From NCBI GenBank assembly GCA_964588985.1, contig CAZPQW010000001.1, positions 64,001 to 128,000 of the forward strand: 64,000 nucleotides of DNA, in the 5' to 3' direction. Position numbers and translations under genes: made by a program. Shown piece after piece: positions 6,027 through 12,940 of this stretch (position 1 is the stretch's first letter; the number at the start of each line of letters is the position of its first letter). This DNA is from an uncultured Solirubrobacteraceae bacterium. Its GTDB lineage: Bacteria > Actinomycetota > Thermoleophilia > Solirubrobacterales > Solirubrobacteraceae. Below the pieces are notes generated by a model that saw nothing but the letters and a program-made list of their open reading frames with translations, was not told the origin of the DNA and ran no database searches.

Positions 6027-6118
6027 GGAGAGGTGGCCGAGAGGCTGAAGGCACTCGCCTGCTAAGCGAGTATGGGGGTTAAACTCCATCGCGGGTTCGA
6101 ATCCCGCCCTCTCCGCCA
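6027..6118 (+). tRNA. tRNA-Ser (anticodon GCU), CCA encoded
   Basis: GGAGAGG/CCTCTCC acceptor stem, CTCGC-CT GCT AA-GCGAG, long variable arm, GTTCGAATC. Confidence 0.97.
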
Positions 6119-6510
6119 TTTGCTTTGGTTTCAAACCGTGGCCCCGAAAAGCGGGGCTGCGGCCGTTTTCGGGCCGGGTTTCGCCGGTCTGGCCGCTTTC
6201 GCGGGCCAGTTTGCGGGCCAGCGGCACAAGCTCGGCGTAGAGCGGTGTGGGCTTGATCTTGACCTCGCCAGTGTCCGAGACGAGCAGCATCAGGTAGATG
6301 GCGAGGTTGATCAGGCGTTTCTCGGTGGGTGATCCGGTCAGGTAGGGCACTAGGCGTTTGTCGATGAGTAGTAGCGCGTCGCTGAGCGCTTGGTCTAGCT
6401 CGCTGACCTCGAAGCTGGCGGCGTCGGCGAGTTGCTGCGCCCTGGTCTGTTCGGTCTCCAGGCGCTTCTGTTGGGCTTGGAGCACCTCTTTGGAGACGCG
6501 GTCAGCGAGG
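6095..6510 (-). pseudogene. C-terminal remnant of a large serine recombinase-like gene reading into the tRNA antisense
   Basis: LADRVSKEVLQAQQKRLETEQ coiled coil, YLTGSPTEKRLINLAIY, then GLKPKQMAERAGFEP; catalytic N-terminus absent; family recognised by eye only. Confidence 0.65.
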
Positions 6511-6636
6511 ACTTACTCGACCAGAAGTTGACCGCCGCTATCGCTAGGGTGCCGCAGCGTACCCTAGTCACGACTCAGAACACATTCCTCGATTGATTCA
6601 ACTTTCGGGACGGGGGCCATTGCCGCCTTGTAACAT

Positions 6637-6918
6637 TTGTGTCAAACTTTGGGCAGACATCACAGACATCGCCCACAATGGAGGAAGCTGATGCCGGATG
6701 CTAGTACGGATCAAACGACTCAAGAAGATGGAGCTGTTGGCGAGTTGATTGTCGAGATCAACTCGCTGCTGTTGAGCACACGAAGTAAGGCCGATACTGC
6801 ACTTCGACTCTCTACAGGCAATCCCCGCCAGCTACGCGACGTCGCAAGACTCGACGACATGCTCACCGCCCCATTGCGATATAGCAGGCAGCTCGCTAGC
6901 GAGTCCACACCAACCTAA
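6637..6918 (+). CDS. Small hypothetical protein (start possibly 6691)
   Basis: ORF with GGAGG before MPDAS; no recognisable domain. Confidence 0.3.
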   Translation: MCQTLGRHHRHRPQWRKLMPDASTDQTTQEDGAVGELIVEINSLLLSTRSKADTALRLSTGNPRQLRDVARLDDMLTAPLRYSRQLASESTPT

Positions 6919-7049
6919 CGCAAACGCCACTTGAGCGTGGAGCGCACGCCGAACATCGCCCAAGTCATCAGCTCCGCTTACGCCAACGCGTCCAACCCCC
7001 TGGATCACGATAGCGATCCAGGGGGTCTTTTTGCTAGCGTCAGGCAGCC

Positions 7050-11578: not shown

Positions 11579-11657
11579 GCTGGGTCTTCGCCGCATCGGC
11601 GGGGCCGCGTCTGGTGGCGGGCGTGACCGGGCATCCAAGGAGCCAGCGCGGGTTGAC

Positions 11658-12416
11658 TCAGGCGGCGTGAGGACGAGCTTCCGTGGTGCGCTTATCGATT
11701 CCGTCAAGGAGCGCACTGGTGGCCTCGACCGATCGCGCCAGTCGCGGTAGCTGAGGGGCAGAAATGATCGTTGCGCGGAGGTCCGCTGCCAGCGTCTTGT
11801 AGCCGAGGTCTTCGAGCTGGGCTGGAAGCTCGGGTCTTGAGAGCGGGAAGCTGTGGTCCGCCAAGAGGCGCCATCGCGCGGTGAGGGTGAGCGCTGTCCT
11901 TACCTGCTCAACCGCGGCTTCGTGATCGCCGCTTGCCACCATCGCGCGAGCGATGCTGAGAGACTTCTGCGCTTGCTGGTGCTTGCGAAGCGGATCTGGC
12001 CACAGCTCCTGTTCTGCGATGAGGCTTTTGCTCTCTTGAACGATGCCCGTGTCGAATACCACGCGGCCGAAGCGCAGGGACCAGTGGGTGAAATCATCTC
12101 CATCTAGTAGTCGGGCACGTAGCCGCGCAGGCGAGACGACGTGGACATCAATCTCGTCAGGTAGACAATCGAGCGCGATGGGCGTGCCGATCAGGTGATA
12201 GTCGAGGTCGCTGACCGGCGTGCGGGCTCCGCGCGCCGTCGATCCGGTAAGGAGCAGGGCGTGCGCCCCCCCTTCGCGAGCACGCGACTCGACCATATCG
12301 TGAGCCACGCGTAGCTTCGCCGGCAGCAGTTCTTGGATGCGGTCGGCCTCATTGCTGAGCCGCATCCTCCAGAGGATTTCGTCGAGCGCGCGCTGTCTTT
12401 CGAGCTCGCTACTCAC
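11658..12416 (-). CDS. Minimal nucleotidyltransferase (MNT) with helical HEPN-like C-terminus
   Basis: LLTGSTARGARTPVSDLDY and IDVHV Pol-beta motifs. Confidence 0.75.
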   Translation of the reverse strand: MSSELERQRALDEILWRMRLSNEADRIQELLPAKLRVAHDMVESRAREGGAHALLLTGSTARGARTPVSDLDYHLIGTPIALDCLPDEIDVHVVSPARLRARLLDGDDFTHWSLRFGRVVFDTGIVQESKSLIAEQELWPDPLRKHQQAQKSLSIARAMVASGDHEAAVEQVRTALTLTARWRLLADHSFPLSRPELPAQLEDLGYKTLAADLRATIISAPQLPRLARSVEATSALLDGIDKRTTEARPHAA

Positions 12417-12786
12417 GATGAGCCTCGGCTAGATCGACTGCCGACTCGACTTCCGAAGCCAGGTCCTCGAGTGACTGCTCCCCGAAATCCGGGTCCTCTC
12501 CGTCATATACGGCCTCCTTGCGAGCCACGTTGAGCGTACGCAAGGCTGGTGCGAAGTTCGTCGTGATGGCGCCCTGGGCGTAAAGCTGTTCGGCGGCCTC
12601 AGCCTTCCGCCAGTGATTGGGCTCGATCGAAACGCCATGCTGTTCGGCGAGTGCGGCGATCGCTGCCTCGAGCGAGACAAAGAGCCAGGTGACGGCGTCT
12701 GTGTAGTCCTGAGACGCTACGGCCGGCAAGGCGCGGTCTAGGTGCTCCCGAGCGAGCTGTTGCTTGGTCTTTGGCGACACGATCAC
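12409..12786 (-). CDS. HEPN-domain protein
   Basis: AREHLDRA, YTDAVTWLFVSLEAAI, H, LNVARKEAVY; overlaps the MNT gene. Confidence 0.7.
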   Translation of the reverse strand: MIVSPKTKQQLAREHLDRALPAVASQDYTDAVTWLFVSLEAAIAALAEQHGVSIEPNHWRKAEAAEQLYAQGAITTNFAPALRTLNVARKEAVYDGEDPDFGEQSLEDLASEVESAVDLAEAHRE

Positions 12787-12850
12787 ATGCTACGCCCCAA
12801 GGTTGATGGGGTCGTCGATCCAACGTCATCTGGCCTCTATGCATTGGGGT

Positions 12851-12940
12851 CAAATCGCTCCTCGTGAAGCCTCCGGATCAGAGGCCACGGAGATTTCGAG
12901 AGTCTTCCCGCCATCCCCGTGTTTGTTTGAAGTTCGAACT
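12851..12940. repeat. att-like repeat A1
   Basis: caaatcgctcctc...ggccacggagatttcgagagtcttcccgccatccccgt then gtttgtttgaagttcgaact; 7 substitutions and one fewer C versus A3. Confidence 0.9.

Follow-up and report, generated by a model that had tools for sequence, protein, structure and literature searches.

A tRNA-Ser(GCU) gene of a Solirubrobacteraceae bacterium as probable attachment site of a large serine recombinase clade and start of an array of attP-like repeats

The window analysed here is a stretch of 64,000 nt from an uncultured Solirubrobacteraceae bacterium (assembly GCA_964588985.1, contig CAZPQW010000001.1, positions 64,001 to 128,000 of the forward strand; positions below are those of the window). 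In its left part a tRNA-Ser(GCU) gene is followed by an array of short repeats that resemble the 3′ end of the gene, and the question was what these repeats are and how they came to lie behind a tRNA gene. A sequence-only reading had taken them for degenerate copies of the tRNA junction with the geometry of serine-integrase attachment sites, and the letters and coordinates that it had compared (tRNA junction, 6102-6137; first A-type repeat, A1, 12906-12940) were all found to be correct. The results described below indicate that the locus is probably a serine-integrase site array, in which the tRNA gene's 3′ end is used as attB by a Solirubrobacteraceae clade of large serine recombinases (LSRs). 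The genome that contains the window has a size of 3.41 Mb, is 95.9% complete and is available as an assembly of 48 contigs.

Insertion point and recombinase at the tRNA-Ser(GCU) gene

The tRNA-Ser(GCU) gene was localized at 6027-6118 (+) with ARAGORN and Rfam, and the corresponding loci of 29 relatives of the same genus were compared. At 18 loci the site was apparently unoccupied: the final ...CTCTCCG was followed by T or C, and the CCA was never encoded. At eight loci, which were regarded as filled, the same end was followed as in the window by CCA (TCA in one case) and TTTG, and after a further stretch of about 10 nt came a GAAC-type motif; a different arm, denoted type 2 below, was found at three loci. 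The AAC ended 21 nt past the discriminator base in all eight filled sites, but in none of 22 other junctions. This comparison of empty and filled sites marks the tRNA gene's 3′ end as the insertion point and the DNA to the right of G6115 as the insert. Together with the intact element described below, it supports the earlier view that the tRNA end is an attB. The gene proper stops at the discriminator G6115, and the CCA at 6116-6118 has been contributed by the inserted element, because the 18 apparently empty sites are devoid of an encoded CCA. In the empty site of one relative (G006) a conserved flank gene, which in the window lies at 22239-24488 (-), ends about 140 nt after the tRNA gene.

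From the junction comparison, an attL was read at 6094-6137 (+). Its putative B half (6094-6115) consists of the T-loop, the T-stem and the 3′ strand of the acceptor stem, and its putative P′ half (6116-6137) consists of the CCA, TTTG and the GAAC-type motif that ends 21 nt past the discriminator. A G+C-rich hairpin (GGCCCCG ... CGGGGC, 6138-6168; read by eye, unfolded) follows the P′ arm and recurs in most of the junctions inspected. Judged from these alignments, the exchange should lie within the CCG at 6113-6115, because the comparison of filled and empty sites bounds it on the right, and on the left T6112 of the tRNA stands opposite a C in most element arms. The P and P′ arms are symmetric about 6113, and the CC at 6113-6114 (tRNA positions 71-72) is the predicted crossover dinucleotide, which seems more likely than the alternative CG at 6114-6115 within the same CCG. 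For A1, the sequence-only reading had pointed to two TCGA motifs (12896-12899 and 12934-12937) and had placed their centre at the CC at 12916/12917. The motifs are indeed symmetric about this point, but the CC at 12917/12918 is the more likely crossover, because the tRNA has a T (6112) opposite the C at 12916, so that this base is not common to both partners. Contigs of two public sequencing runs match the window through the tRNA gene and CCATTTG and diverge at 6123, which suggests that these communities also contain other elements of this kind at this tRNA.

Next to the tRNA gene, the minus strand encodes a peptide (6512-6119) that has no match in Pfam, so that the Resolvase, Recombinase and zinc-ribbon domains are all missing. 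It matched the C-terminal tails of open frames of 550-650 aa in 14 of 60 genomes of the same genus or the same order (best non-self E-value 7e-27), and the domains Resolvase, Recombinase and Zn_ribbon_recom were all detected in two of these homologues (L003 and L004). Among 1.84 billion representative proteins, a search yielded 126 matches with E <= 0.001, nine of them with E <= 1e-30. Eight library matches were scanned for domains: three were full-length proteins with all three domains, three were partial proteins with one domain, and two had none. Recombinase and zinc-ribbon domains were present in L003, L004, P0031, P0058, P0071 and the protein of the intact element described below. When a full-length homologue of 566 aa was used in a tblastn search, the window aligned to residues 411-566 only. 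These homologues and this alignment bear out the assumption that the peptide is a piece of a serine recombinase, and it is a dead LSR fragment (6119-6512, -) that has lost the catalytic and DNA-binding domains. The frame itself (5832-6512, -) has no stop before the tRNA gene and continues through it in antisense, as do the frames of L003, L004 and L051, and the true C-terminus of the integrase may depend on the junction.

Truncated integrase genes were also found at the same tRNA in three relatives (G075, G004 and G034); the four genes, including that of the window, are cut at different points and have no motif in common there. A second copy of the clade was not detected in the window's own genome at 95.9% completeness. 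Because this genome has no intact integrase of the clade, the array is probably frozen at present. The only other serine recombinase of the genome (contig C17, 22508-24157) was dismissed, as it is unrelated to the clade and has no adjoining tRNA gene. In five genomes of the genus that were checked, the number of Recombinase-domain matches ranged from 2 to 12 per genome, so the LSR load of the genus seems to be high.

The association with tRNA genes extends through the clade. Twenty LSR loci outside the window's own genome were listed, and at 15 of the 19 that were examined the 3′ end of a tRNA gene faces the 3′ end of the LSR gene. These tRNAs belong to nine species, i.e., Ser-GCU (two loci), Ser-GGA, Asp (two), Lys (three), Ala-UGC (two), Ala-GGC, Leu-CAG (two), Pro-GGG and Arg-CCG. 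At four of the 19 loci no facing tRNA was found, and one of these four is cut by a contig end.

An intact homologue, for which the sequence-only reading had proposed to search, was found in relative G085. Its tRNA-Ser(GCU) gene is followed by a right arm and a hairpin like those of the window, an open reading frame (ORF) of 588 aa with all three LSR domains, the frame of which continues into the tRNA in antisense, and genes of the HEPN/nucleotidyltransferase kind. The element ends after 5.5 kb with a B-type left arm like those of the window, which is joined to a host-type flank. No recombinase match was obtained for the other eight ORFs that were scanned. To judge from these features, the 5.5-kb element is an intact element of the same design, with the LSR as its only recombinase.

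Arms and geometry of the putative attachment sites

The left arms of 23 sites in eight genomes could be aligned without gaps (five from the window, one from contig C24 of the same genome and 17 from seven relatives). They share a common plan, which begins with a T-loop-like motif (one of GGTTCGAAC, GGTTTGCAA and GATTTCGAGA) and continues with a spacer of 4 nt, variable in letters but constant in length, TCCC(G/T), 4 nt, and (C/T)C(C/T)CCG. In about 20 of the 23 left arms, a count that includes the manual reading of TTTCGA cases, the distance from the start of the T-loop-like motif to TCCC is 11 nt, in contrast to 6 nt in the tRNA. In A1, for example, TTCGA (12895-12899) starts 11 nt before TCCCG (12906), whereas TTCGAA of the tRNA (6096-6101) starts 6 nt before it and abuts it. 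The 5-bp offset that had been noticed earlier for this single pair is thus general. Measured from the boundary behind the discriminator, the GGTT-type motif starts at a distance of 27 nt in the left arms, compared to 22 nt in the tRNA.

The geometry of the right arms is fixed. In 21 of 22 tRNA junctions on the LSR side (15/16 and 6/6), which cover all nine tRNA species, the AAC ends at +21 relative to the discriminator. It mirrors the GTT of the T-loop, which starts at -21 in the tRNA and at about -26 in the left arms. Left and right arms of the element sites are symmetric about tRNA position 71 (window 6113), and the half-site of the tRNA is about 5 bp shorter. In the published attP/attB model of phage-type serine integrases, the zinc-ribbon motif is placed at bp 16-24 of attP and 11-19 of attB (Rutherford et al., 2013; PMC3783163); the corresponding motif lies here at about 17-25 in the attP-like arms and at about 12-20 in the tRNA. 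The motif positions thus reproduce the published 5-bp shift between attP and attB.

These observations can be combined to the following model. The tRNA half-site would be read in two parts, with the T-stem and the 3′ strand of the acceptor stem as inner motif and the universal T-loop GGTTCGAA as outer motif, which would be contacted by the zinc ribbon. The half-sites of the element have both motifs as well, the outer one being displaced outward by 5 bp, and the strands would be exchanged at the CC of the acceptor end (6113-6114). Each internal repeat would consist of the left arm of one unit and the right arm of the next and thus be an attP-like joint, the tRNA junction would be an attL, and the last repeat (15869-15897) an attR. 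The repeats would then not be degenerate copies of the tRNA, as had been supposed, but attP-type sites that mimic it.

Several tests addressed whether these resemblances could be due to chance. The score of the alignment between the tRNA junction and A1, which rests on a 14-nt core with two mismatches, was reached by 61 of 5000 dinucleotide shuffles and by 28 of 5000 random windows of the genome, so that it exceeded the shuffled controls. A right-arm matrix was built from the tRNA junctions of eight other genomes and applied to both strands of the 3.41 Mb; the arm of A1 (12922) ranked first and the arm of the window's own tRNA junction (6119) second. The next-ranked matches (C2:113001 and C3:120530) were dropped, as they have no adjoining tRNA gene. 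A strict left-arm pattern had five matches in the genome, all of them in the array and on the plus strand. In 205 kb downstream of tRNA-Ser(GCU) in 13 relatives it had 14 matches in forward and none in reverse orientation, and in 139 kb of other loci it had none. As independent tests, the matrix and the strict pattern strongly confirm the resemblance. A loose pattern matched 107 times in 61 genomes, compared to 41 times for the reversed control (summed by hand, with some places listed twice), and its matches are meaningful only as clusters.

The repeats might alternatively be decayed partial copies of the tRNA 3′ end that were left behind by successive islands with tyrosine integrases, the integrase fragment being a bystander. 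Tandem accretion with partial tRNAs is a common pattern at tRNA genes according to the accessible parts of two reports (bioRxiv 10.1101/2020.12.28.424599; PMC9303363), the genome contains 13 matches to Phage_integrase elsewhere, and one true partial copy of a tRNA-Lys was indeed found in G034. However, neither the island of the window nor the arrays of five relatives contain a Phage_integrase match. The only one in the 20-kb stretches examined, in G033, is weak and partial and lies 17 kb from the tRNA gene, beyond the last site. The identity with the tRNA is confined to the 14-nt core with its two mismatches and does not form a long exact block; the two hallmarks of such islands, an integrase gene of this type and, at the far end, an extended perfect duplicate of the 3′ part of the tRNA, were both missing from the island of the window. 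The displacement of the T-loop-like motif by a constant 5 bp, with a spacer that is variable in letters and fixed in length, the conservation of the right arms as inverted partners of the left arms, and the LSR as only recombinase of the intact G085 element also speak against this explanation. By comparison of their sequences, the long partial tRNA copies of the tyrosine-integrase kind in the genus look unlike these repeats. An origin from tyrosine-integrase islands is therefore considered very improbable, and the reading as a serine-integrase site array is retained.

Units of the array and their mobility

A repeat finder detected three repeat families in the array, namely a left part of 70 nt (starts at 12852, 14837 and 15829), a left part of 111 nt (11434 and 13687) and a right part of 41 nt (11541, 13796 and 14901); CCCCG is the point at which a left part passes into a right part. 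According to the model, five units would be stacked at the tRNA gene. Unit 1 (6116-11545, 5.4 kb) would be an island that starts with a type-1 right arm, contains the now truncated integrase gene and cargo of low G+C content, and ends with a B-type left arm. Units 2 to 5 have sizes of 0.9-1.4 kb and are devoid of an integrase gene, several of them containing probable toxin-antitoxin pairs. Type-2 right arms and A-type left arms delimit unit 2 (11546-12919), unit 4 (13801-14905) and unit 5 (14906-15897), and a type-1 right arm and a B-type left arm delimit unit 3 (12920-13800).

The joints between the units are all on the plus strand. At B1 (11519-11577) the left arm (GGTTTGCAAC, 3 nt, TCCCG...CCCCG) reaches to 11545 and is followed by a type-2 right arm (11546-11577), and at A1 (12892-12940) the left arm (GATTTCGAGAGTCT, TCCCGCCATCCCCG) reaches to 12919 and is followed by a type-1, i.e., integrase-type, right arm (12920-12940). 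B2 (13772-13832) has a B1-like left arm to 13800 and a type-2 right arm (13801-13832), and A2 (14877-14937) an A-type left arm to 14905 and a type-2 right arm (14906-14937). A3 (15869-15897) is an A-type left arm alone, after which unrelated DNA begins, and it is a candidate attR made of a P arm and the host-side flank. The earlier notion that the internal repeats are attP-like joints of tandem elements was retained in its outline, but among the internal joints only A1 has the integrase-type right arm, and B1, B2 and A2 carry the type-2 arm.

The A-type left arms (12886-12921, 14871-14906 and 15863-15898) are enclosed by a 9-bp inverted repeat (CACGGAGAT ... ATCCCCGTG), which forms a local hairpin (z about -2.1 to -2.4) and is missing from the B-type arms. 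One further joint, with an A-type core, a type-2 arm and a loop-like motif that lies 8 nt further out, was found on contig C24 of the same genome (about 11700-12640, -). It adjoins two small ORFs, taken as a toxin-antitoxin pair without a domain scan, and is not downstream of a tRNA; the nearest one, a tRNA-Arg gene, is 8.5 kb away and in the wrong orientation.

With units of about 1 kb, several of them with probable toxin-antitoxin pairs, and with repeats of 60-70 bp in a single orientation, the array resembles a cassette array of the integron type, in which the repeats would be attC-like single-strand folds and the enzyme an IntI-type tyrosine recombinase. Such a recombinase was found neither in the array of the window nor in the arrays of five relatives. 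Eight single-strand folds had z values from +2.1 to -2.4, no hairpin spanned a site, and the B-type repeats folded no better than shuffled sequences. Furthermore, the gene orientation within the units is mixed, and the array begins at a tRNA gene and has a serine recombinase gene at its proximal end. An integron in the strict sense can hence hardly be believed in, and the serine-integrase array remains the preferred explanation.

For the mobility of the small units, the tRNA-adjoining units of two relatives are informative. In G061 and G066 this unit has a size of only 0.7-0.9 kb, with a type-2 arm at the crossover and an A-type left arm at its end, and the left part of unit 4 of the window (13798-14155) is homologous to the unit of G061 from the crossover onwards. 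Because these small units start at the crossover and end in an A-type arm, and because that of G061 matches unit 4, the sequences support a modular nature of the units. Only unit 1 might represent a real LSR insertion, and the small units might never have been mobile on their own, being either decayed cargo of older and larger LSR islands or products of homologous recombination between repeats. The lack of a linked integrase in all small units, the integrase genes cut at different points in four genomes, which indicate active decay, and a type-2 arm that does not fit the geometry of LSR half-sites would all agree with this possibility. It is nevertheless considered unlikely, as the tRNA-adjoining units of G066 and G061 are so small and lead from a type-2 arm at the crossover to an A-type left arm, as this pairing recurs in three units of the window, and as the boundaries of the units coincide with the crossover. 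That the small units are moved by the same enzyme, supplied in trans, is judged about evenly balanced. All joints of the window can be explained by one insertion after another at the tRNA-proximal joint, but equally by insertion at the distal end.

In public data, parts of the window were recovered from 22 rhizosphere or soil runs, in all cases as assembled contigs; parts of the window that no public contig covers are uninformative. Contigs of four runs span the joints B1 and B2 in the same arrangement as in the window. In one run (X13) a single contig of 1259 nt (without mismatches, at a depth of 4.2) leads from 14867 back to 12883 via 36 nt that are common to A2 and A1. This joint would be expected if units 3 and 4 formed a circle or were present as a tandem copy, and it is a weak hint of rearrangement.

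A number of points weigh against a serine-integrase site array as it is proposed here. Recombination has not been observed, and the integrase-less units had no linked integrase at any locus examined. For canonical serine integrases, attL and attR are not partners of attP, and therefore stacking at one tRNA requires either relaxed rules or a junction that still acts as attB. The GTTCGAAC of the type-2 arm ends at +31, compared to +21 for type 1, and thus about 9-10 bp or about one helical turn further out, so that the published half-site geometry does not explain the arm in three of the four internal joints. A symmetric reading of this arm was rejected, because its centre would lie 2 nt past the discriminator, but the junctions of G066 are identical only to 1 nt past it. 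The pairwise alignment of tRNA junction and A1 reaches no more than a modest significance, and when the right arms are compared on their own, the pairwise score is not significant (2325 of 5000 shuffles and 696 of 5000 genome windows reached their score). The sites share descent, so that their numbers overstate their independence. The order of the units after A1, A2 and A3 rests on a single assembly of 48 contigs, and the public contigs break at the A-type repeats. The joint of run X13 could equally be an assembly chimera or a product of homologous recombination, given the 36-nt repeat and the low depth.

For the LSR elements at tRNA-Lys, tRNA-Ala and tRNA-Asp genes, no convincing left arm at the distal end was found within 20 kb with searches for tRNA-end repeats, a 14-mer with mismatches in three genomes (noisy), an inspection of five candidate places and a motif-plus-core scan, and the 5-bp shift is therefore documented for serine tRNA targets only. 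One candidate, L068 (G034:C1:176340-176520, -), was discarded as it turned out to be the true partial tRNA-Lys copy mentioned above. It extends from the anticodon loop to the 3′ end, is followed by a right-arm-like CGAACC, and lies 54 kb from the tRNA-Lys gene that has an adjoining LSR gene.

Similar arrangements were observed elsewhere in the genus. A second, large family of left arms (TTCGATCTTCG followed by TCCCTCCCTC...) forms clusters downstream of other serine tRNAs that have a CCCTC T-stem (G031:C5, 71-93 kb; G068:C1, 402-409 and 479-484 kb; G068:C6; G002; G083), and because of these clusters such arrays are regarded as common in the genus. At another locus (L043 in G029, 1907 and 7500), the flank that follows the last repeat of the array recurs 5.6 kb further on, behind a second tRNA. 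This tRNA has a serine-type 3′ end, is followed by more sites, and may be duplicated or borne by an element.

The surroundings and the cargo of the units can be described as follows. A tRNA-Ser(UGA) gene (5866-5958; ARAGORN, with which Rfam concurs) lies back to back with the tRNA-Ser(GCU) gene, and the G+C content of the window falls from about 70% to 55-65% over about 6.1-17 kb. The cargo of unit 1 (6513-11518; G+C 55-60%) comprises small ORFs, a GDSL hydrolase gene (10026-10706, -) and a gene for a 734-aa protein with a C-terminal methyltransferase domain (7050-9254, +), which has a weak match to the PADLOC model mad2 and may be a defence protein. The genes of unit 2 (11658-12786, -) encode a nucleotidyltransferase-like protein of 252 aa and a partner of 125 aa, which probably form a toxin-antitoxin-like pair and have weak family matches, and those of unit 3 (12962-13659, -) a 150-aa PIN-domain protein, with a match below the Pfam cut-off, and an 82-aa partner. 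The three ORFs of unit 4 (13875-14174, +; 14171-14404, +; 14547-14837, -) had no family match, and unit 5 (14992-15745, -) encodes a toxin-antitoxin-type pair of a 148-aa HEPN protein and a 106-aa minimal nucleotidyltransferase; NCBIfam and PADLOC added little to these names. Behind A3, DNA with a near-host G+C content (15898-22238) encodes TetR regulators, hydrolases and other proteins. These 6.3 kb are also variable, because in G006, where the site is empty, only about 140 nt separate the tRNA and the conserved flank gene; a left arm was not found near their right boundary at 22240. In the flank gene a repeat with a period of 141 nt occurs eight or nine times (families D1 and D2), and the gene looks like that of a repeat-domain protein.

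Taken together, it is tempting to speculate about the clade as a whole. The T-loop GGTTCGA would be its fixed outer attB motif, 21 nt from the discriminator, and retargeting among at least nine tRNAs would proceed via the inner motif alone. Integrase-less units of about 1 kb, several with toxin-antitoxin pairs, would insert serially, with the junction of tRNA and type-2 arm still acting as attB, in a serine-recombinase counterpart of integrons. This extended proposal is put forward tentatively, the balance lying slightly against it. New in the present study are a tRNA-targeting LSR clade with invariant geometry, the T-loop as outer motif and integrase-less mini-units. No published account of the T-loop as a serine-integrase motif or of serine-integrase cassette arrays at tRNAs was found in a partial literature that excluded supplements. 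The word tRNA is absent from the accessible main text of PMC10083194, the supplementary attachment-site tables of which may include tRNA targets.

Serine integrases are the main tools for the insertion of large DNA, and the discrimination of attB and attP is known from few phage systems. The family described here provides many related instances of the 5-bp rule in nature, and thus a natural test of the attP/attB model, in which one half-site is the end of a tRNA and has an outer motif that is identical in every organism. If it is true that only the inner motif changes between tRNAs, the clade would be a model for redirecting integrase specificity, and it could supply integrases with landing sites that are already present in most genomes. 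The serial insertion, if true, would mean that toxin-antitoxin and defence genes are gathered in an integron-like manner at a serine-integrase site in Actinobacteria.

Comparison with known systems

Chromosomal integrons are single-orientation arrays of short units that are rich in toxin-antitoxin genes and grow at one fixed site. In these respects the array is alike, but integrons depend on the tyrosine recombinase IntI and on folded single-stranded attC sites, neither of which was found in the island of the window, in five relatives or among the eight folds. The comparisons with other systems refer to the accessible parts of the papers cited.

The homologues of the remnant share the three-domain architecture and the C-terminal tail with phage-type serine integrases (A118/Listeria innocua integrase, phiC31, Bxb1; PMC3783163). 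The sites, the likeness of which was read from their letters alone, also share an attP of about 50 bp, inverted outer motifs, an attB outer motif that is 5 bp nearer to the centre, and a short core; this agreement with the published attP/attB model includes the 5-bp shift of the sequence-only reading. Different from these integrases, the clade is directed to tRNA 3′ ends and not to a protein-coding gene or an intergenic site, the universal T-loop would serve as outer motif of attB, the geometry is repeated at nine tRNA species, and elements are stacked in tandem. Serine-integrase phages are said to insert frequently inside open reading frames (PMC9303363), and serine integrases in or near tRNA genes have been called few (PMC3429521). 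Among the latter are actinobacterial integrative elements (AICEs) of Mycobacterium with serine integrases at tRNA-Leu, which resemble the present elements in having a serine recombinase at or near a tRNA gene in Actinobacteria. They have a single tRNA target, and neither a site geometry nor a role of the T-loop nor integrase-less arrays are described in that text (PMC3429521).

The tycheposons of Prochlorococcus (bioRxiv 10.1101/2020.12.28.424599) are alike in that serial insertion at one tRNA pushes older elements outward, in that their islands contain degraded integrases and leftover attachment sites, and in that a minority has a large serine recombinase. Unlike the present array, 910 of 937 use tyrosine recombinases, and the leftover sites are partial tRNAs and not offset mimics. 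Composite elements of the staphylococcal cassette chromosome (SCC; CcrAB/CcrC; PMC13739063) share the insertion by a serine recombinase at the 3′ end of a conserved gene and the tandem arrangement with internal attachment sites. In the present case this gene is a tRNA gene and not rlmH, the host is a soil actinobacterium, and the units, most of which contain probable toxin-antitoxin pairs, are of a much smaller size; the resemblance to SCC would appear to be one in the way of working, and not in membership.

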